64,000 nucleotides of DNA from Melghirimyces algeriensis (lineage in GTDB: Bacteria; Bacillota; Bacilli; Thermoactinomycetales; DSM-45169): NCBI RefSeq assembly GCF_900182565.1, contig NZ_FXTI01000001.1, positions 478,316 to 542,315 on the forward strand. Direction: 5' to 3'. The notes under the pieces were generated by a model. The model worked only from the letters and a program-made list of their open reading frames with translations. It did not search any database and was not told the origin of the DNA. Positions within the stretch are counted from its first letter, which is position 1. Each line of letters opens with the position of its first letter. Shown piece after piece: positions 29,059 through 61,465 of the stretch. A program made the position numbers and the translations under genes.

Positions 29059-29211
29059 TCTCAATATAGCGATGAGATCGTGGTTTTCAGGTTCTACTTC
29101 TCTATCGCCGATCGGCAAGGGGTTAGACGAATCACAGTAGGTTGGAGTAAAATAATCTCGTTCACCATATGCTTGACAGCAATCAGTGTGATCAATGGGG
29201 AGTGTGAAAGC

Positions 29212-30069
29212 ATGAACATAGAATACTGGTATCATTTTATGGAAACCGCACGACAAAAAAGTATATTGAAAGCCAGTGCAAAACTGCAGATGACTCACCC
29301 CGCCTTGAGTAAACAAATACGCGCTTTGGAGCAGTATTATGGGGTTACATTGTTCCGACGCTCTTCAACCGGCGTACAACTGACAGAGGCGGGCAATTGT
29401 TTGTTTCAGAGGTTGGAGGTTTTAATAGCAGAGCATGAAATGCTTCGCACTGATTTGCAAAAATATGCAGCTACAGACCCCAAGCCGATTACTTTAGGAA
29501 CCCTTCCAAGTATTGCGATGTTTCATTTACCAGCGAAGGTATTGCGCCTGCAGGCGAATGGGTTCCGGATGAAAGTGGTGGTGCGTCATACGACAAAAGA
29601 ATTGGTGGAGTTACTGCAAAACGATATACTTCACGCTGTATTGATAGAGAAAACACCGCTTCATAAATCGGTATGGACGACAGAGTTGTTTCGGGAGGTA
29701 TATTACGCGATTTTGCCCACTGATCACCCTTTGTCCTGCCAAAGTGAATTGAGCAAAAAGGAAATGGTTCAGGAACCCTTAGTGGTACACCCGAATGCTT
29801 GCGTGATTCGAAAAACGATCGTTCGACAGTTTGAAAGGTCGGGACTGGTACCCCAGATCGGAAAAGAGATCGATTTTGGAGAGTCTATTCTTGCTTACGT
29901 AGCAGCCGGAGCTGGTATCACCATCATGCCACTGTCCTCCACTGCTGAACAGGTAACAGATCCACGGCTTAAGGTGATACCGCTCATCGATTTCGATGCA
30001 GAACGTGTCATCATTCTTGCTACCCGTTCCTCCTTGGAAGGAAAGCATTTGCTTCGATATCTTAAATAA
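29212..30069 (+). CDS. LysR family transcriptional regulator
   Basis: N-terminal HTH (LKASAKLQMTHPALSKQIRALE) plus a LysR substrate-binding domain. Start is moved to ATG 29212 after GGGGAG. Confidence 0.8.
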   Translation: MNIEYWYHFMETARQKSILKASAKLQMTHPALSKQIRALEQYYGVTLFRRSSTGVQLTEAGNCLFQRLEVLIAEHEMLRTDLQKYAATDPKPITLGTLPSIAMFHLPAKVLRLQANGFRMKVVVRHTTKELVELLQNDILHAVLIEKTPLHKSVWTTELFREVYYAILPTDHPLSCQSELSKKEMVQEPLVVHPNACVIRKTIVRQFERSGLVPQIGKEIDFGESILAYVAAGAGITIMPLSSTAEQVTDPRLKVIPLIDFDAERVIILATRSSLEGKHLLRYLK

Positions 30070-31032: not shown

Positions 31033-31120
31033 TCGGAGGTTCGACTCCTCCATCGCCAGCCGGCGATTAGCTCAGTTGGTAGAGCACACGTGATACTGAG
31101 GTTCGATTCCTCAATTGTCT
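31033..31120 (+). pseudogene. tRNA-like relics: a 3' fragment (T-arm + acceptor 3' strand, 31033-31058) directly followed by a truncated tRNA-like sequence (acceptor-D-arm-T-arm without an anticodon arm, 31061-31120)
   Basis: The first piece is GTCGGAGGTTCGACTCCTCCATCGCCA. The second is CGGCGAT-TA-GCTCAGTTGGTAGAGC followed by 10 nt then TGAGGTTCGATTCCTCA. The second piece has no anticodon stem-loop and its 3' acceptor strand does not pair with its 5' end. Confidence 0.3.
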
Positions 31121-31438
31121 AGTGGACAATGCTTGGCAGCTCCTTTGTTTTTTGGGCTTTTTTAGTGGAATCCTCAGTAAATCTGCGGTGGAAAGTATTC
31201 CATCGATTTACACTGAAGGTTCGGCCTCGAAGGTTGGTGGATACCGGGGTGGTTGATTACTTGATCGTCTGAACTGACAGAAGTTTGAATCAATAGAGGA
31301 GAGGGTTTTTTTCTTTTTTGTTTCATCTTCGGGTACAGAAGGCTTGGAAAGACCGTTCCTTAAGCCAAGCTCCGCCGGTTCTTTGGGAGGGTTCCACAAA
31401 AAGCTTCATTGATTTTACGTTAGGAATGAGGAAATGAT

Positions 31439-34947: not shown

Positions 34948-34956
34948 GGGTTGCCC

Positions 34957-35727
34957 ATGGAATCCGATGTGCGCAATTCCAGACACAAACATTTGTCTGA
35001 TAAGGAAGTTAAGGAGCTAATTGAGAAGAGTCAAAAAGGGGACGTCGCTTCCCGCGATCGATTGGTTAATCATAATATTCGCCTGGTTTGGTCGGTTGTA
35101 CAACGTTTTCTGAATCGGGGTTACGAGGCGGAGGATCTTTTTCAGATTGGTTGTATCGGGCTGTTAAAGGCAGTGGACAAATTTGATTTAACCTATGATG
35201 TTAAATTTTCCACTTATGCGGTTCCAATGATTATTGGAGAAATTCAGCGATTTCTCAGGGATGATGGAGTTATGAAAGTGAGTCGTTCCCTGAAAGAACT
35301 GTCCAATCGAATTCGCAAAAGCAAAGATGAACTTACCAAAATGTTGGGTCGGAGTCCCACCGTATACGAGTTGGCGGAAGAGATGGATGTTCCGGTGGAA
35401 GAAATTATCTTTGCGCAAGAAGCGAATCGTGCTCCTACATCCATTCATGAGACGGTATATGAAAATGATGGGGACCCGATTACCTTGATGGATCAGATTG
35501 CGGATCGTTCGGAAGAGAGTTGGTTTGATAAAATTGCTTTAAATGAAGCGATTAACCAATTGAGCGAGCGTGAAAAATTGATTGTCTACCTTCGTTTTTT
35601 TAAAGATCAAACCCAATCAGAGGTTGCTGAGCGTTTGCAGATTTCACAGGTTCAGGTTTCCCGGTTGGAAAAGAAGATAATTCGTCGGATGAGAAGCTCC
35701 ATCGACGAATATGAAAACGACCGTTGA
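34957..35727 (+). CDS. sigF: RNA polymerase sporulation sigma factor F
   Basis: Regions 2-4 are nearly identical to B. subtilis SigF (MRLVWSVVQRFLNRGYE...DLFQIGCIGLLK). ATG 34957 after GAGGG. Confidence 0.9.
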   Translation: MESDVRNSRHKHLSDKEVKELIEKSQKGDVASRDRLVNHNIRLVWSVVQRFLNRGYEAEDLFQIGCIGLLKAVDKFDLTYDVKFSTYAVPMIIGEIQRFLRDDGVMKVSRSLKELSNRIRKSKDELTKMLGRSPTVYELAEEMDVPVEEIIFAQEANRAPTSIHETVYENDGDPITLMDQIADRSEESWFDKIALNEAINQLSEREKLIVYLRFFKDQTQSEVAERLQISQVQVSRLEKKIIRRMRSSIDEYENDR

Positions 35728-35786: not shown

Positions 35787-35813
35787 AGCTCTCCTTCAGG
35801 AGAGCCTTTTTTG
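35787..35813 (+). terminator. Intrinsic terminator AGCTCTCC-TTCA-GGAGAGC + T6
   Basis: Perfect stem followed by CTTTTTTG, downstream of sigF. Confidence 0.65.
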
Positions 35814-35875
35814 CATGGTTGATGCAATGGTATCGCATACTAGGAAGGGCAGGGCTTGTTGAAGGAGGATGATCA

Positions 35876-36499
35876 ATGGCTACCAAGCAAATATTTCTTC
35901 AAATGAGGAAAAGAATACAGATACGGCCGGGTCAAAACCTCCGGGTAAAGGATGTAGCGGATATATTGGCTGAAAACAAGGAGGAAATAGAAAATCTTCC
36001 CATTAACCGATTTGGGAAACATGAAGGAAAGTTGGCTGTTGTGGAATTAATGGATGTTCTCCAGGTGATTCAGAGAGCCGGGTGTCCTGCCGATATACGT
36101 ACAATCGGTCCTCCGCAAACATTAGTGGAGTTTAAAACACCTGCACCTATTCCTGGTTGGCTGGCTGTTGCCGGAGTTTGGTCCATTTTGTTTGTGGGGT
36201 CAGGACTGGCCATTATGAATTTCCATACGGATGTCAGTATGAAGGAAGTTCATGAACGGATATTTTATCTGATGACGGGTGTAAAAAAGTCAAAGCCGCT
36301 GATTTTGCAAATCCCCTATTCTTTTGGGATTGGTCTAGGTATGGTTCTTTTTTTTAACCATGTTTTTCGCAAAAAATTTAATGATGAACCGACTCCTCTT
36401 GAACTGGAAGTATTTTTATATCAGGAAAACATTGATCAATATGTGATTGATCATGAAAAGTCACAGAAACGGAGAGATTCAGGTGGCCCTTCTGGATAG
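35876..36499 (+). CDS. spoVAA: Stage V sporulation protein AA
   Basis: Position immediately after sigF, SpoVAA-like length and a C-terminal TM segment. The RBS is GAAGGAGG. Confidence 0.65.
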   Translation: MATKQIFLQMRKRIQIRPGQNLRVKDVADILAENKEEIENLPINRFGKHEGKLAVVELMDVLQVIQRAGCPADIRTIGPPQTLVEFKTPAPIPGWLAVAGVWSILFVGSGLAIMNFHTDVSMKEVHERIFYLMTGVKKSKPLILQIPYSFGIGLGMVLFFNHVFRKKFNDEPTPLELEVFLYQENIDQYVIDHEKSQKRRDSGGPSG

Positions 36500-36908
36500 C
36501 CTGCTTTTGGTCATGATTGGATTGGCAGGGGGAATCGCAGTCGGCAGTGGTCTGGTGGCTTTTCTGACCGTATTGGATATTGTACCGCGATTAACGGTTC
36601 TGACTCAAACCCGTCGACAGATCCACTGGTATGAATGGGCTTTTGTTCTGGGGGCTCTGTTGTATACATGGGCTGACTTTGGGGAATGGGTTGCTTTTTT
36701 CTCCCCTGTATCCACAGCCATTGTGGGGTTTCTTTCCGGTATTTTTACGGGATTGTTAGCTGCTGCTTTAACTGAGGTGATTAATGTTCTGCCGATTCTT
36801 GCGAAACGAATTCGTATGGAGTCCCGAATTCTTTGGCTGTTAATGGCTATGGTGATGGGAAAAGTGGTTGGTTCTTTGTTTCAATGGCTTATCTTTATTA
36901 CGGATTAA
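36483..36908 (+). CDS. spoVAB: Stage V sporulation protein AB
   Basis: 141-aa membrane protein (TEVINVLPILAKR) matching the SpoVAB length. GTG start after GGAGAG. Confidence 0.65.
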   Translation: MALLDSLLLVMIGLAGGIAVGSGLVAFLTVLDIVPRLTVLTQTRRQIHWYEWAFVLGALLYTWADFGEWVAFFSPVSTAIVGFLSGIFTGLLAAALTEVINVLPILAKRIRMESRILWLLMAMVMGKVVGSLFQWLIFITD

Positions 36909-36934
36909 CGATGAATCATAAGGAGTGAGGAAAT

Positions 36935-37288
36935 ATGGGTTCTGTTTGGTCTGCATTTCTGGTGGGAGGTTTAATCTGTGTAATCGGTCAATTGCTGATG
37001 GATCTAACAGCGATGACACCAGCGCATGTTTTGAGTACCTTGGTGGTGGGTGGAGCTGTATTTGATGGACTGGGGCTATATGAGCCTTTGATTAAATTTG
37101 CCGGAGCCGGCGCTACAGTCCCGATTACCAGTTTTGGAAATTCATTGGTTCATGGGGCTTTGTCCGAAGCAAAGTCAAGTGGGTTAATCGGGGTTCTTTC
37201 TGGAATATTTGAGGTGACCAGTGCAGGTATATCTGCAGCGATTATATTTGGATTTCTGACAGCTCTGGTATTTCGTCCTAAGGGTTGA
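36935..37288 (+). CDS. spoVAEB: Stage V sporulation protein AEB (SpoVAC/AEB family, short form)
   Basis: 117 aa with the motifs FLVGGLICVIGQLLMD and FAGAGATVPITSFGNS and no N-terminal extension, which marks it as AEB rather than AC. Confidence 0.6.
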   Translation: MGSVWSAFLVGGLICVIGQLLMDLTAMTPAHVLSTLVVGGAVFDGLGLYEPLIKFAGAGATVPITSFGNSLVHGALSEAKSSGLIGVLSGIFEVTSAGISAAIIFGFLTALVFRPKG

Positions 37289-37293
37289 ATCCG

Positions 37294-37857
37294 GTGAGGA
37301 AACGAAAAGTGATCTTAATTACGGACGGAGATCGGTTGGCCAAAGAAACAGTGGAAGAGGTGGCACGGTACATAGGTGGCCGGTGTATATCCGCTTCCGC
37401 CGGAAATCCGACTCCCATAAACGGGGAAGAGCTGGTAAAACTGATTCAGCAAGCGCCAAACGATCCGGTGCTTGTTATGTTTGATGACTGTGGATCGATA
37501 CGAAAGGGGAGAGGCGAACAGGCTTTGGAATACGTCATAAACCACAGAAATGTGGAAGTATTGGGCGTTGTAGCAGTCGCTTCCAACAGCCCGAATGTAG
37601 CTGGAACTCCAGTTCATATTGCCCTTGATCGAAATGGAAATATGGTTGAACATCAAGTGGACAAAAACGGGATGGAAGTTGATGGTGCCCCTCTGCGGAT
37701 ATTCGGAGACACAGTGGATGTTCTTAACGCTTATCAACTTCCGTTGGTGGTGGGAATAGGGGATATAGGAAAGATGGATCACTATGATGATCCGCTCTGG
37801 GGAGCCCCTGTGACCAAAAAAGCGGTACAACTCATCCTGGATAACGCTGGATACTAA
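37294..37857 (+). CDS. spoVAEA: Stage V sporulation protein AEA
   Basis: ILITDGD...GGRCIS...LVMFDDCG matches SpoVAEA. GTG 37294 is preferred over the track start at 37285. Confidence 0.6.
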   Translation: MRKRKVILITDGDRLAKETVEEVARYIGGRCISASAGNPTPINGEELVKLIQQAPNDPVLVMFDDCGSIRKGRGEQALEYVINHRNVEVLGVVAVASNSPNVAGTPVHIALDRNGNMVEHQVDKNGMEVDGAPLRIFGDTVDVLNAYQLPLVVGIGDIGKMDHYDDPLWGAPVTKKAVQLILDNAGY

Positions 37858-37915: not shown

Positions 37916-37952
37916 TATATGTGCTCTGTAGGGAATGTTCCATTGTTTTCCT

Positions 37953-38178
37953 GTGAGTAGAGGTGCGGTCCGCATGAATACCTTCCTGGAGAATCGGCAT
38001 CGAAGAAAGGTTGGGAAAGGGCGTTTCGCCGAAGTAGGAGGGGGTGCCGAAACCCCTCTTGCTGGTCGATTTGCTGAATAAGGAGTCGACTGTCGCGGCT
38101 CTGTCGCGGAGTGCTACATGAGGAGGACTGTTCTGAATGAAAAGCAACAGACGTCTTCGTCCGTTGCTTTTTCTGTTT
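37953..38178 (+). ncRNA. Lysine riboswitch (L-box) with a terminator expression platform
   Basis: Conserved L-box elements are present: GTAGAGGTGCGG, CTGGAGA, GAAAGGGCG, TCGCCGAAGTAGGAGGGG and TGCTGGTCG. They are followed by the hairpin AAAGCAACAGACG-TCTT-CGTCCGTTGCTTTTTCTGTTTTG directly before the lysA RBS. Confidence 0.7.
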
Positions 38179-38206
38179 TGAAGAAACGTTGAGAGGGGTG
38201 CCCAGT

Positions 38207-39532
38207 ATGCGGCTAAGAGGAACCAGTCAGTTTAACGATCAGGGACACTTGGAAATCGGGGGATGTGATACGGTTGAGCTTGCGGAACAGTTTGGAACCC
38301 CCCTATATATAATGGATGAATGGATGATTCGCCAACGGATGCGTGAATATATGCAAGCGTTCCAAAAAACCGGTTTAGCTTTCCAGGTGGCATATGCCAG
38401 TAAAGCCTTTAGTACATTGGCCATGTGTCGTTTGGTGGCGGAAGAAGGGTTGCATCTGGATGTTGTTTCGGATGGGGAGTTGTTTACTGCGTTAAAAGCG
38501 GGCTTTCCTGCAGAAAGAATTTATTTTCATGGAAATAACAAGACACGTGAAGAGTTGGAAATGGGTTTGGATGCTGGAATTGGCTGGTTTGTGGTGGATA
38601 ATTTTAATGAGTTGTCCATGCTGAGTTCCCTTGCATACAAAAAGGGGCTAACCGCGCGTGTATTGCTCCGTACGACTCCTGGAGTGGAAGCTCATACTCA
38701 TACGTATATTCAGACTGGTCAGGAGGATTCCAAGTTTGGTTTTAATCTGGCGAGTGGGCAAGTTCATAAAGCAGTGGAGCGCTGCTTGCAATATAAAGGT
38801 TTGAAAGTGGACGGGTTTCATTGTCATATCGGTTCCCAGATTTTTGAGACAGACGGTTTTCGTCTAGCTGTACAGAAGCTTGTCACTCTTTCTGAGGAAT
38901 GCCGGAATTTATTCGGTTTTCAGACCCGGATTCTCAATCTGGGAGGAGGGTTTGGAATTCGATACAATGAAGAGGATCGTCCCATGTCTGTGGATCAATA
39001 TATTTTTGCCATTGCGGAAGAGATCCGGTCCGGTTTTTCCGAGAAGGACATTCCCCAGGTTGTTGTGGAACCGGGGCGCAGTATCGTGGGAGAAGCCGGA
39101 ACTACGTTATATCGTGTGGGGACCATTAAACAAATCCCAGGCGTAAGGAAGTATATCTCTGTGGATGGCGGAATGAATGATAATCCTCGTCCAGCTCTGT
39201 ACCGTGCATCTTATGAGGCTATATTAGCCAACCGGACCTCGGAACAGCCGGAAGAGACGGTTTCCGTAGCGGGTAAATTGTGTGAGTCCGGGGATATGTT
39301 AATCTGGGATATTGACCTTCCTCATGTGAAAAGCGGTGATTTGTTGGCTGTAACCTGCACAGGAGCCTATAACTATTCCATGGCAAACAATTACAATCGT
39401 TTGCGTCGACCTGCGGTTGTTTTTGTGCGTGATGGATATTCAGATGTGGTAGTCCGCCGTGAAAGTATGGAAGACCTGATTAAAAATGACCGGATTCCGA
39501 ATCGTTTACTGACACCGAACGGTCAATGCTGA
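38207..39532 (+). CDS. lysA: Diaminopimelate decarboxylase
   Basis: PLP-dependent fold III decarboxylase with an N-terminus similar to B. subtilis LysA (GTSQFNDQGHLEIGG...YASKAF). ATG 38207 after GAGGGG. Confidence 0.85.
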   Translation: MRLRGTSQFNDQGHLEIGGCDTVELAEQFGTPLYIMDEWMIRQRMREYMQAFQKTGLAFQVAYASKAFSTLAMCRLVAEEGLHLDVVSDGELFTALKAGFPAERIYFHGNNKTREELEMGLDAGIGWFVVDNFNELSMLSSLAYKKGLTARVLLRTTPGVEAHTHTYIQTGQEDSKFGFNLASGQVHKAVERCLQYKGLKVDGFHCHIGSQIFETDGFRLAVQKLVTLSEECRNLFGFQTRILNLGGGFGIRYNEEDRPMSVDQYIFAIAEEIRSGFSEKDIPQVVVEPGRSIVGEAGTTLYRVGTIKQIPGVRKYISVDGGMNDNPRPALYRASYEAILANRTSEQPEETVSVAGKLCESGDMLIWDIDLPHVKSGDLLAVTCTGAYNYSMANNYNRLRRPAVVFVRDGYSDVVVRRESMEDLIKNDRIPNRLLTPNGQC

Positions 39533-42139: not shown

Positions 42140-42337
42140 ACAATCCTTCGGGGCTGGGTGAAATTCCCGACCGGCGGTGATGGAGAGTACTCCTCAGTCC
42201 GTGACCCGCGCAAGCGGTGGATCCGGTGAAACTCCGGGGCCGACAGTGAAAGTCTGGATGGGAGAAGGATGAATGTTTCATACTCGTGCGTAGTAATCGG
42301 GAAACCCTCTCTATGAATGAAGGAGGGTTTGGTTCCG
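42140..42337 (+). ncRNA. FMN riboswitch (RFN element) with a terminator hairpin
   Basis: CCTTCGGGGCTGGGTGAAATTCCCGACCGGCGGTGA...CCGTGACCCG...CGGTGGATCCGGTGAAACTCCGGGGCCGACAGTGAAAGTCTGGATGGGAGAAGGATGAA matches the RFN consensus nearly position by position. The terminator GAAACCCTC...GAGGGTTTGGTT follows. Confidence 0.75.
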
Positions 42338-58430: not shown

Positions 58431-60011
58431 TTAAAGGTCGATTGCAGTCACTCGATGGATTTCATCCAATGCCTCCAATGACTCCAATAACGTTTCTGAA
58501 ACTTGTTTATCCACATGTAACATCATAATCGCCCGTCCGCCGATGTTTTTCCTGCCAACCTGCATAGTGGCAATATTTACGCCGTGGTCGCCCAGAATGG
58601 TTCCTACACGGCCGATTGCACCGGGACGGTCATAGTGATGGATCAATAGCAGGTGACCTTCTGGTTGGACATCGACCGGATATTGATCAATTTTTACAAT
58701 TCTTGTCCCCAAGCCATTTAGGAGGGTACCGGACACTATAAACTCTCCTTGATCGGTTCGAATCCCCACATGGATAAGATGTGTAAAGCCGTGGCTTTGG
58801 GAAGTTTTTTGCTCAGTTACCTTGATGCCCCGTTCCTTGGCCAAATAGGGAGCACTGACGTAGTTCACATCAGACAAATAGTGGGACAGTGTTCCTTTCA
58901 GGATGATTCTGCTGAGTGGAGCGGTGTCCATTTCAGCCAGTTCTCCGGAAAAGGTAATGGTTATTTCCTCCAGAGCTCCTTCAGCCGATTGAATAGAGAA
59001 GCTGCCCAGCCTTTCGGCCAAGATTTGGTAGGGACGGAGTTTTTCTTGAAGTTCCGCCGGTATAGAAGGTAAATTAACGGCATTTTTAAACGGTTCATCC
59101 CGGAGGATGTGAAGAATCTCTTGGGAAACATCGATGGCTACATTTTCTTGAGCTTCGCGAGTGGACGCTCCCAGATGAGGAGTGGCGATCACTTGTGGAA
59201 GGGTGAACAATGGATGCTCACCGGGTGGCTCGGTTTCAAAGACATCAAGTGCAGCCCCAGCGACCTTTCCACTCTGGATCGCATCAAACAAGGCATTTTC
59301 ATCAATGATTCCGCCCCGCGCACAGTTGAGTATACGGACACCGTTTTTCATCTGGCTGAAGGCTTTTGCATCGATCAGATGCCGGGTTTCCTTTGTAAGG
59401 GGAGTGTGAACCGTAATGAAGTCGGATGCAGCGATGACATGATCCAGTGATGCTTTTTGTACACCGATTTTTTTTGCCCGATCTTCTGTGAGATAGGGAT
59501 CAAAAGCCATGACATTCATGTGAAAAGCCCTAGCCCGTTTGGCAAGCTCTGTTCCGATTCTACCCAGGCCGAGAATACCGAGCGTTTTGTTGTTTAATTC
59601 CACTCCGACATACGCTTTTCGGTTCCATTCTCCCCGAACGATGGATCGGTATCCCTGGGGAATGTTTCGAGCCAACGAAATCAACATGGCAAAGGTATGC
59701 TCCGCAGTGGAAATGGTATTGCCATCCGGGGCATTTACGACGATGATTCCCTGGGCAGTGGCAGCGGGAATATCGATGTTATCCACTCCCACCCCAGCAC
59801 GTCCGATCACCTTTAGTTTTTTGGCATGTTGGATAAGCTCGGCGGTTACCTGGGTCTGACTGCGGACGATTAAGGCGTCTGCATCAGCGATTTCAGTCAG
59901 TAGCTCTTCTTTGGATAAATCGGTTTTTTGAACGACCTTTACATCGGTTGCATCCAACAACTGTTCAATTCCCAGCTTGCTGAGAGGGTCAGTGATCAAT
60001 ACGCGAAACAC
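58431..60011 (-). CDS. serA: D-3-phosphoglycerate dehydrogenase with a C-terminal ACT domain
   Basis: High similarity to B. subtilis SerA (KVIGRAGVGVDNIDIPAATAQGIIVVNAPDGNTISTAEHTFAM). GTG start at 60011 (VFRVLITD) after GAGGAGGAA. The track ORF extends spuriously to 60083. Confidence 0.85.
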   Translation of the reverse strand: MFRVLITDPLSKLGIEQLLDATDVKVVQKTDLSKEELLTEIADADALIVRSQTQVTAELIQHAKKLKVIGRAGVGVDNIDIPAATAQGIIVVNAPDGNTISTAEHTFAMLISLARNIPQGYRSIVRGEWNRKAYVGVELNNKTLGILGLGRIGTELAKRARAFHMNVMAFDPYLTEDRAKKIGVQKASLDHVIAASDFITVHTPLTKETRHLIDAKAFSQMKNGVRILNCARGGIIDENALFDAIQSGKVAGAALDVFETEPPGEHPLFTLPQVIATPHLGASTREAQENVAIDVSQEILHILRDEPFKNAVNLPSIPAELQEKLRPYQILAERLGSFSIQSAEGALEEITITFSGELAEMDTAPLSRIILKGTLSHYLSDVNYVSAPYLAKERGIKVTEQKTSQSHGFTHLIHVGIRTDQGEFIVSGTLLNGLGTRIVKIDQYPVDVQPEGHLLLIHHYDRPGAIGRVGTILGDHGVNIATMQVGRKNIGGRAIMMLHVDKQVSETLLESLEALDEIHRVTAIDL

Positions 60012-61152
60012 GAATCCATTCCTCCTCTGCTGCTTTGGTGCCGGCTCCGGTTTCAACCGGGGCGCCGATCCGTGCCAGTGCAACTTCTAATGCGGATAAA
60101 GCGGTCAGTACATCCAATGGATCGGCATAACCCATGTGTCCAATACGGAAGATTTTCCCCTTCAAATGTTGCTGTCCACCGGCCACTCGCAATCCAAGAT
60201 ATCGGAGTTCTGAACGCAAGCTTTCGACGGACCACTGTTCTCCACCCATAATGGATGTCACCGTTGGGGAAGCATCTCGGTGGTTCGCCAGCAACTCTAG
60301 ACCAAGGGCTTTAACGCCTGCACGTGCCATGTCTCGCATCAAGCGATGGCGATGAAAGACATGCTCCAGGCCTTCTTCCTCCAACATATCAAGAACTTCC
60401 TCCAATCCAAACAGTAGGGAAACTGCCGGAGTGAATGGAGTGGTGGATTGTTCCAGACTGTTTTGGTATTTGCGAAAATCCAAGTAAAAGCGTGGATGGG
60501 AGTTGGATTGAATTGTTGTCCAGGCTCGCTCGCCAACAGCCGCAAAAGAGAGACCGGCGGGTAACATCAATGCTTTCTGCGAACCGGAGACCAGTATATC
60601 AACCCCCCACTCATCCAGACCCGCCGGAACACCACCGATACAGCTGACTCCATCCACGATGGTTAAGGCATCCGTATGTTCCCGGATCGTTTCGGCTAGT
60701 GTTTTAATGGGATTTAAAACGCCTGTGGATGTTTCGCAATAGGTGAGAAAGACGGCTTTGATTTTGGGATGTTTTTTCAAAAAGGTTTTTAATTCTTCTG
60801 GATGGCACGCCTTTCCCCATTCAATATCCAAGCGATGGGTTTGAACATTCATGGAATTGAGGATTTTGGCAAAACGATCCCCGAAAGCTCCAGTTACAAT
60901 AACTGCTGCTTCATCGCCTTCAGTCAGGGTGTTGGCTGCAGCGGCTTCCAAGGCGGATGTACCACTTCCAGTCAAAATCAGTACGGGATTTTGAGTTCCA
61001 AACACCGGTCCAAGGCGAAGACTCAGATTGTGTACAAGTTTGGAACAATCCGGGTCGCGATGACCGATCATCGGTCGATTCATCGCCTGCTGAACCCGAG
61101 GGGGAATCGGTGTGGGTCCAGGGATTTGAAGACGAAATTTGTCTTTTAACAC
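59989..61152 (-). CDS. Class V (AGXT-family) aminotransferase, a candidate phosphoserine aminotransferase forming an operon with serA
   Basis: PLP-lysine motif SGSQKALMLPAG. GTG start at 61152 after GAGGAGGAGAG; the track ORF extends spuriously to 61245. It overlaps the serA start by 23 nt. Confidence 0.7.
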   Translation of the reverse strand: MLKDKFRLQIPGPTPIPPRVQQAMNRPMIGHRDPDCSKLVHNLSLRLGPVFGTQNPVLILTGSGTSALEAAAANTLTEGDEAAVIVTGAFGDRFAKILNSMNVQTHRLDIEWGKACHPEELKTFLKKHPKIKAVFLTYCETSTGVLNPIKTLAETIREHTDALTIVDGVSCIGGVPAGLDEWGVDILVSGSQKALMLPAGLSFAAVGERAWTTIQSNSHPRFYLDFRKYQNSLEQSTTPFTPAVSLLFGLEEVLDMLEEEGLEHVFHRHRLMRDMARAGVKALGLELLANHRDASPTVTSIMGGEQWSVESLRSELRYLGLRVAGGQQHLKGKIFRIGHMGYADPLDVLTALSALEVALARIGAPVETGAGTKAAEEEWIRVSRIDH

Positions 61153-61182
61153 GGTTTCTCTCCTCCTCTGTAAAATGTAAAA

Positions 61183-61465
61183 AAGCCTTTCATCCCACAC
61201 CACTGTCCAGCGGTGAGGGACGAAAGGCCGTGTTGCCACCCTCATTCACTCCGACCTCACAGCCGGAGTCTCATTGGGTCTATTGAAGACCCTGGGATAA
61301 CGGTTCACCGATTCGACCTACTGTGATTCAGCCGAATGACTCAGGAGTGCTCCGCAGCGGTTGGAACACCGATTCGCAGCTACCATCGGCTCTCTGCAGT
61401 TCCGTTTTTCGCCACTTGGCTCCGTCATTGTCTTTTCCTGATCAGTATTTCAAAAAAGATTGTAA
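61183..61465 (-). ncRNA. T-box riboswitch leader (candidate serine-specific) upstream of the aminotransferase-serA operon
   Basis: On the minus strand there is an AGAGAG AG-box, the T-box sequence AATGAGGGTGGCAACACGG, and a terminator GCCTTTCGTCCCTCACC...GGTGTGGGATGAAAGGC + T6 immediately before the aminotransferase RBS. A TTGACA -35 element lies about 290 nt upstream. Confidence 0.55.

Follow-up and report, generated by a model that had tools for sequence, protein, structure and literature searches.

A sigF-linked spoVA operon without spoVAC and spoVAD in Melghirimyces algeriensis, probably one half of a spoVA system split over two loci

Introduction

Does a spore former whose spoVA operon has no spoVAC and no spoVAD also lack the core of its dipicolinic acid (DPA) channel? 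The question is raised by a 64-kb stretch of DNA from Melghirimyces algeriensis (Thermoactinomycetaceae), hereafter the window, in which four consecutive, co-oriented, and tightly packed plus-strand open reading frames (ORFs) form a short spoVA operon at 35876-37857, between sigF and lysA. The Bacillus subtilis-type operon is found between the same two genes, is sigma-G-dependent, and runs spoVAA-AB-AC-AD-AEB-AEA-AF. A first-pass annotation, made from the sequence of the window, read the short operon as spoVAA-spoVAB-spoVAEB-spoVAEA and took the missing genes to imply either that another part of the genome holds a second spoVA locus, possibly one resembling spoVA2mob, or that the channel has an unusual composition. 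Here we report that the M. algeriensis genome has the full core set of SpoVAC, SpoVAD, and SpoVAEB, spread over two loci. The window operon is very probably the sigF-linked half of a split spoVA system that is made complete by the spoVAC-spoVAD pair at the second locus.

The distinction matters for how the operon is read. SpoVAC, SpoVAD, and SpoVAEb of B. subtilis are required, and also suffice, for DPA to accumulate, with SpoVAC and SpoVAEb forming the channel of their joint complex and SpoVAD a cytoplasmic plug, while SpoVAA and SpoVAB have milder roles and SpoVAEA and SpoVAF are dispensable for DPA uptake (PMC9186386).

The window operon encodes a single core subunit, SpoVAEB

Protein families were scored using Pfam and NCBIfam profiles. 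The third gene of the operon (36935-37288, +) encodes a 117-aa protein of the family PF03862, to which SpoVAC and SpoVAEB both belong. As the protein scores above the cut-off of the SpoVAE equivalog model (TIGR02839 spore_V_AE, 165.7 bits against 131.1) and far under that of the SpoVAC model (TIGR02838 spore_V_AC, 65.8 against 164), we identify it as SpoVAEB and rejected SpoVAC as a candidate identity, in agreement with the first-pass annotation. Its length is that expected of SpoVAEB (~116-117 aa); SpoVAC is expected to have ~150-160 aa, including an N-terminal extension. The protein is 79% identical to SpoVAEB of the seven-gene Tepidibacillus operon, and only 33% identical to the SpoVAC of that operon, the N-terminal ~35 residues of which it lacks. 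It is 100% identical to M. algeriensis SMO41178.1 at NCBI, 'stage V sporulation protein AE', and is the sole core DPA-channel subunit encoded at the window locus.

The absence of the remaining subunits was examined by running tblastn with SpoVAC, SpoVAD, and SpoVAF of Tepidibacillus infernus, which has a complete seven-gene operon (L010), against the six frames of the 64-kb window. Neither SpoVAD nor SpoVAF found a match in any of these frames (best E values of 0.22 and 0.6, respectively), and the sole SpoVAC match in the window was the 33% cross-match to the spoVAEB gene. No GerA-like SpoVAF ORF (PF03323, ~500 aa) follows spoVAEA in the window, where a riboswitch and lysA come directly. The earlier observation that only four spoVA cistrons lie downstream of sigF, with no SpoVAD or SpoVAF ORF before lysA, is thus upheld by profile identities and by the translated search alike. 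spoVAB and spoVAEB are just 26 nt apart, a stretch that includes a ribosome-binding site, AAGGAGTGAGG, and therefore leaves no room for a frameshifted or mis-called spoVAC or spoVAD.

The other three genes are equally recognizable. SpoVAA (35876-36499, +; 207 aa) scores 57.3 bits against PF12164 SporV_AA (cut-off 25), is 46% identical over 199 aa to the SpoVAA of Tepidibacillus, and exactly matches NCBI SMO41150.1, 'stage V sporulation protein AA'. The longest ORF of spoVAB (36447-36908, +; 153 aa) scores 121.1 bits against PF13782 (cut-off 25) and its product is 57% identical to Tepidibacillus SpoVAB; a start at 36483, giving 141 aa, is the likely one and is also the gene call in a near-identical contig (L001). 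Both proteins reach the Pfam gathering scores, and their genes open the operon that comes after sigF, in the same order as in T. infernus. The last gene, spoVAEA (37285-37857, +), encodes 190 aa from a TTG that overlaps the spoVAEB stop, or 182 aa if translation starts at 37309. The protein scores 245 bits against PF14097 (profile positions 1-178 of 180) and 239.4 against NF052647 (cut-off 200), and is 57% identical to Tepidibacillus SpoVAEA. The gene call in L001 is the 182-aa form. The 190-aa form has no exact database match, which is probably a matter of start-codon choice, the public call being 182 aa. An antisense ORF of 171 aa (37315-37830) was disregarded because it lies wholly inside the well-supported spoVAEA. 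Three other proteins of the window (SpoIIAA, CtaA, and an M23 peptidase) are likewise identical to M. algeriensis proteins at NCBI, and the spoVA genes are already correctly named in the public annotation.

spoVAC and spoVAD lie on another contig of the same genome

A search with Tepidibacillus SpoVAD found SpoVAD in several Thermoactinomycetaceae. In Salinithrix and Thermoactinomyces, the order around its gene is CBS gene, yhjD-like gene, spoVAC, spoVAD, and GDSL esterase, with no spoVAEB. A genome scan with Salinithrix SpoVAD then brought in about 20 species of the family, including Melghirimyces thermohalophilus (L043). M. algeriensis was not returned by that scan (0 of 6 peptide patterns matched) and was reached using the M. 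thermohalophilus SpoVAD as the query.

In M. algeriensis, SpoVAC (SMO61621.1, 160 aa) and SpoVAD (SMO61666.1/WP_142505330.1; 339 aa in the GenBank form and 334 aa in the RefSeq form) are encoded, together with a GDSL esterase (SMO61733.1), on a contig of 287,541 bp; the window is on a contig of 637,619 bp. One copy of the locus that we retrieved (L051) encodes these three proteins exactly. In a second, 99.8% identical copy (L050), both core subunits exceed the cut-offs of their models, SpoVAC with 199.1 bits for TIGR02838 (cut-off 164) and SpoVAD with 502.1 for TIGR02845 (cut-off 411.8). The gene order is CBS gene, yhjD-like gene, spoVAC, spoVAD, and GDSL esterase. No SpoVAEB is encoded within ~8 kb upstream or ~4 kb downstream, and the Pfam listing of the same flanks has neither DUF1657 nor a transposase. 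The predicted second spoVA locus thus exists, and an unusual channel composition need not be invoked since SpoVAC and SpoVAD are encoded in the same genome.

A promoter-like motif, GAATA-N18-AAACCTA (L050 7475-7504), ends 32 nt before the spoVAC ATG. Of 22 family loci, 21 have the pattern G[ACT]ATA-N17-18-[ACG]ANNNTA upstream of spoVAC, whereas it occurs in 1.7% of background 240-nt windows from the same loci. The motif is therefore conserved, and hints at forespore expression without proving it.

Two neighbors of the pair merit description. The product of the GDSL/SGNH esterase gene (PF13472; L050 9053-9727, L051 9052-9702) shows no apparent signal peptide. In most Thermoactinomycetaceae genera (L012-L022, L024-L028, L043), this gene adjoins the stop codon of spoVAD or overlaps it. 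No such gene follows spoVAD in Shimazuella, Baia, Croceifilum, two Thermoactinomyces sp. strains, a metagenome-assembled genome (MAG) of the family (L023), and all non-family loci. From this arrangement, the esterase gene may share a transcript with the spoVAC-spoVAD pair and be its lineage-specific partner. On the upstream side, 0.9-2.9 kb from spoVAC-spoVAD, M. algeriensis has two DUF421/YetF-family genes (L050 4596-5267 and 5985-6671); genes of this family have the same placement in Melghirimyces and Marininema (also L043, L016, and L028).

The split is shared across the Thermoactinomycetaceae

The arrangement spoVAA-spoVAB-spoVAEB(-spoVAEA) directly after dacF-spoIIAA-spoIIAB-sigF is also found in two Thermoactinomyces lineages (L002-L009) and in Polycladomyces abyssicola (L011). 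At the second locus, spoVAD occurs without spoVAEB in all 21 Thermoactinomycetaceae species examined (L012-L034, L043, L050/L051), and spoVAC is directly upstream of spoVAD in all but two of them. The non-family loci from the same scan (L035-L042, L044-L049) have contiguous spoVAC-spoVAD-spoVAEB in 14 out of 14 cases. Both loci are present in a single Thermoactinomyces assembly, ERR13764468 (L007, L013). In one of the Thermoactinomyces lineages, that carrying P0028 (L002-L005), spoVAA-spoVAB-spoVAEB runs straight into ctaA, with neither spoVAEA nor lysA in place there.

The synteny of the second locus (CBS, spoVAC, spoVAD, GDSL esterase, S8 peptidase) is kept across most genera, which indicates vertical inheritance. 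A quick neighbour-joining tree, in which one protein stood for the canonical operon, places the SpoVADs of the family in one clade beside the SpoVAD of the seven-gene Tepidibacillus operon (63-66% identity), apart from those of the stand-alone spoVAC-spoVAD-spoVAEB loci. This placement would fit one ancestral relocation of the canonical spoVAC-spoVAD pair. Among publications on spoVA or spoVAD in Thermoactinomyces or the Thermoactinomycetaceae, we found no description of the split.

A proposed two-locus spoVA system

We propose that an ancestral spoVAA-AB-AC-AD-AEB-AEA(-AF) operon lost exactly spoVAC-spoVAD (and spoVAF) in the Thermoactinomycetaceae, and that the lost pair, of the canonical (spoVA1) type, was kept at a second, family-conserved locus without spoVAEB. 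SpoVAEB from the window operon would be produced in the forespore together with SpoVAC and SpoVAD from the other locus, and the SpoVAC-SpoVAEB membrane channel and the SpoVAD plug would then assemble as the usual DPA channel. This channel would import DPA during sporulation and release it at germination, with SpoVAA, SpoVAB, and SpoVAEA serving as accessory factors. We infer this standard mechanism because both units are preceded by forespore-type (sigma-G/sigma-F-like) motifs; we predict that these function as promoters, that the two units are co-expressed, and that the complex forms. In B. subtilis, spoVAC, spoVAD, and spoVAEb each complement in trans, and the three genes work from an ectopic locus (PMC9186386); physical linkage is therefore not needed.

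Several points weigh against this proposal. In the Thermoactinomycetaceae, both co-expression of the two units and interaction of their products are predictions from sequence. The -35 part of the motif before spoVAC in L050 fits sigma-G/sigma-F, but its -10 part, AAACCTA, departs from the sigma-G CATWHTA, and the loci in which the relaxed pattern was counted had in part served to derive it. Gene content, with respect to spoVAF and to further copies of spoVAEB, spoVAC, or spoVAD, covers the window and the second-locus flanks rather than the whole genome. Finally, duplication followed by reciprocal loss is an alternative to translocation of the spoVAC-spoVAD pair, and translocation is only weakly favoured over it.

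Alternative explanations

A wider reading starts from the genus Laceyella. In Laceyella sacchari DSM 43356 (L017 9815-10007) and L. tengchongensis DSM 45262 (L018 9815-10007), the promoter-like motif, GCATAAAG...CACGATA, and spoVAD are kept, with ~170 bp between them. No SpoVAC similarity was detected in this interval, which is the part of the two genomes that the result covers. L. putida has an intact spoVAC at the same position (L019 9447-9978), and the last ~25 bp before spoVAD in L. sacchari and L. tengchongensis resemble the 3' end of that gene. Both species keep the esterase gene after spoVAD. On these grounds, spoVAC appears to have been internally deleted at the second locus in L. sacchari and L. 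tengchongensis. Should both species lack spoVAC elsewhere as well, DPA would enter their spores through a SpoVAC-less channel, contradicting the rule that SpoVAC, SpoVAD, and SpoVAEB are all present in every case. On the wider reading, the split would be more than drift in gene order: in the Thermoactinomycetaceae, the spoVAC-spoVAD pair may be an independent module with a lineage-specific GDSL esterase partner, and dependence on SpoVAC may be relaxed; we regard this as improbable.

The second locus could also be an acquired module of the spoVA2/spoVA2mob type that replaced the native spoVAC-spoVAD pair, in which case a hybrid channel would form with the native SpoVAEB. The DUF421/YetF family includes the 2Duf protein of spoVA2mob, and the two DUF421/YetF genes upstream of spoVAC in Melghirimyces speak for such a module, as do the DUF421 genes that directly flank stand-alone spoVAC-spoVAD-spoVAEB loci in Desulforadius and in two MAGs, one of the Limnochordia and one labelled 'Bacillus sp.'. 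In Melghirimyces, however, a CBS gene, a yhjD-like gene, and terminator-like hairpins lie between the DUF421 genes and spoVAC, and most other members of the family have no DUF421 genes at the locus. The Pfam listing of the locus has no spoVAEB, DUF1657, or transposase. The SpoVAD is 63-66% identical to that of the canonical Tepidibacillus operon, compared to 42-57% for the stand-alone loci, and clusters with the canonical protein. Together with the stable synteny across the family, these features make acquisition very unlikely, and the earlier suggestion of a spoVA2mob-like second locus does not hold.

In a true reduction, the bacterium would have neither SpoVAC nor SpoVAD and DPA would pass through an unusual channel of SpoVAEB alone, aided by SpoVAA, SpoVAB, and SpoVAEA. 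The local gene content of the window is all that speaks for this reading, and it is left with a negligible probability by the equivalog-level SpoVAC and SpoVAD on another contig of the same species and assembly and by the conservation of that locus across the family. That spoVAC and spoVAD are present at 36900-37300 in frameshifted, fused, or mis-called form, or that the 117-aa protein is really SpoVAC, as the first-pass annotation had itself considered, is practically untenable: no point in its favor was found, and it is opposed by the 26-nt gap, the lack of a SpoVAD signal in any frame, the TIGR02838 and TIGR02839 scores, and the recurrence of this gene order in separate assemblies from three genera as well as in a further, independent contig (99.8% identical).

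Boundaries and regulation of the window operon

Upstream of the spoVA genes are dacF, spoIIAA, spoIIAB, and sigF (34951-35727). Downstream of sigF, a hairpin at 35788-35805 (+), GCTCTCC-TTCA-GGAGAGC followed by the T-run CTTTTTTG, resembles an intrinsic terminator and would set the spoIIA-sigF unit apart from spoVA. A sigma-G-type promoter-like site, GCATG-N18-CATACTA (35813-35842, +), ends 33 nt before the spoVAA ATG and exactly fits GHATR-N17-18-CATWHTA, the sigma-G consensus of B. subtilis. On both strands of the window, GHATR-N18-CATWHTA has two exact matches, against 0.21 expected by chance. Polycladomyces (L011) and Tepidibacillus (L010) share the sigma-G-type motif ahead of spoVAA, and Thermoactinomyces keeps CATACTA. 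The site is thus a candidate sigma-G promoter for expression in the forespore. The other exact match, GCATG-N18-CATTTTA at 29210-29239 (+), falls within the 5' portion of an ORF for a LysR-family regulator (29080-30069) and is probably a chance match.

At the 3' side, a full-length lysine riboswitch (L-box; 37950-38124, +) matches Rfam RF00168 with 104.8 bits (gathering score 30). Next come a hairpin with a T-run that resembles a terminator, at ~38140-38180, and lysA (38207-39532, +), which encodes diaminopimelate decarboxylase (TIGR01048, 507.8 bits) and is called as a 441-aa gene in L001, with its ATG at 38207. With a riboswitch of its own, lysA forms a lysine-regulated unit by itself, and spoVAEA is therefore the last gene of the spoVA operon.

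Other features of the window

Away from the operon, a 61-nt Rfam tRNA match at 31061-31121 (+; 40.9 bits, gathering score 29) is located where 730 bp separate a minus-strand F420-oxidoreductase-like gene from a Band 7/SPFH gene. ARAGORN reports no tRNA anywhere in the window, and the match may represent a tRNA fragment or a tRNA-like element. An FMN riboswitch (42140-42273, +) precedes a ribD-led riboflavin operon, and a T-box leader (61213-61437, -) precedes the ORF at 59989-61245.

Discussion

The spoVA system of M. algeriensis is most likely an ordinary and complete one, unusual in its split gene order but functionally unremarkable, and kept as such across the Thermoactinomycetaceae examined. 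The practical consequence is a caution: a sigF-adjacent spoVA operon without spoVAC and spoVAD does not mean that the core of the DPA channel is missing. The spoVAEB gene of the window is probably the only one for this subunit in the genome, and would therefore be essential. The split offers natural support for the finding that SpoVAC, SpoVAD, and SpoVAEb do not need to be co-transcribed (PMC9186386), and its family-wide occurrence makes it a simple marker, in terms of synteny, of the Thermoactinomycetaceae. It opens no new mechanism; the only lead with real potential is outside the window, namely that two Laceyella species have apparently lost spoVAC.

Comparison with known spoVA systems

The window operon resembles the B. 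subtilis-type operon, here represented by that of T. infernus (L010), in its position, with dacF-spoIIAA-spoIIAB-sigF on the 5' side and lysA on the 3' side, in the order of spoVAA, spoVAB, spoVAEB, and spoVAEA, in the sequence of their products (46-79% identical to the Tepidibacillus proteins), and in the sigma-G-type motif before spoVAA. It differs in that spoVAC-spoVAD is missing between spoVAB and spoVAEB, and spoVAF is missing as well. The contiguity of spoVAC, spoVAD, and spoVAEB in one operon, which characterizes the canonical B. subtilis type, is not found in M. algeriensis, where spoVAC-spoVAD has a separate locus with its own promoter-like motif and a GDSL esterase gene downstream.

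The minimal operon of clostridia, for example Clostridioides difficile, is the tricistronic spoVAC-spoVAD-spoVAE. The M. algeriensis genome has the same three core proteins. Unlike in the clostridial operon and in the stand-alone loci of the non-family genomes (L035-L049), however, the gene for SpoVAEB is apart from spoVAC-spoVAD and beside spoVAA, spoVAB, and spoVAEA.

Other second spoVA loci include spoVA2 of the Bacillus cereus group, with NJ2, and the spoVA2mob operon on Tn1546 in B. subtilis. As in the genomes that carry them, M. algeriensis has more than one spoVA-related locus, and in Melghirimyces DUF421/YetF genes are near the second one. Loci of the spoVA2 type are extra, complete C2-D2-Eb2 sets, the products of which are ~53% identical to their SpoVA1 paralogs, and they bring accessory genes of their own (PMC13059800). 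The two loci of M. algeriensis are instead complementary halves of one set: the second has no spoVAEB, no DUF1657, and no mobile-element genes, and the SpoVAD that it encodes clusters with the canonical type.

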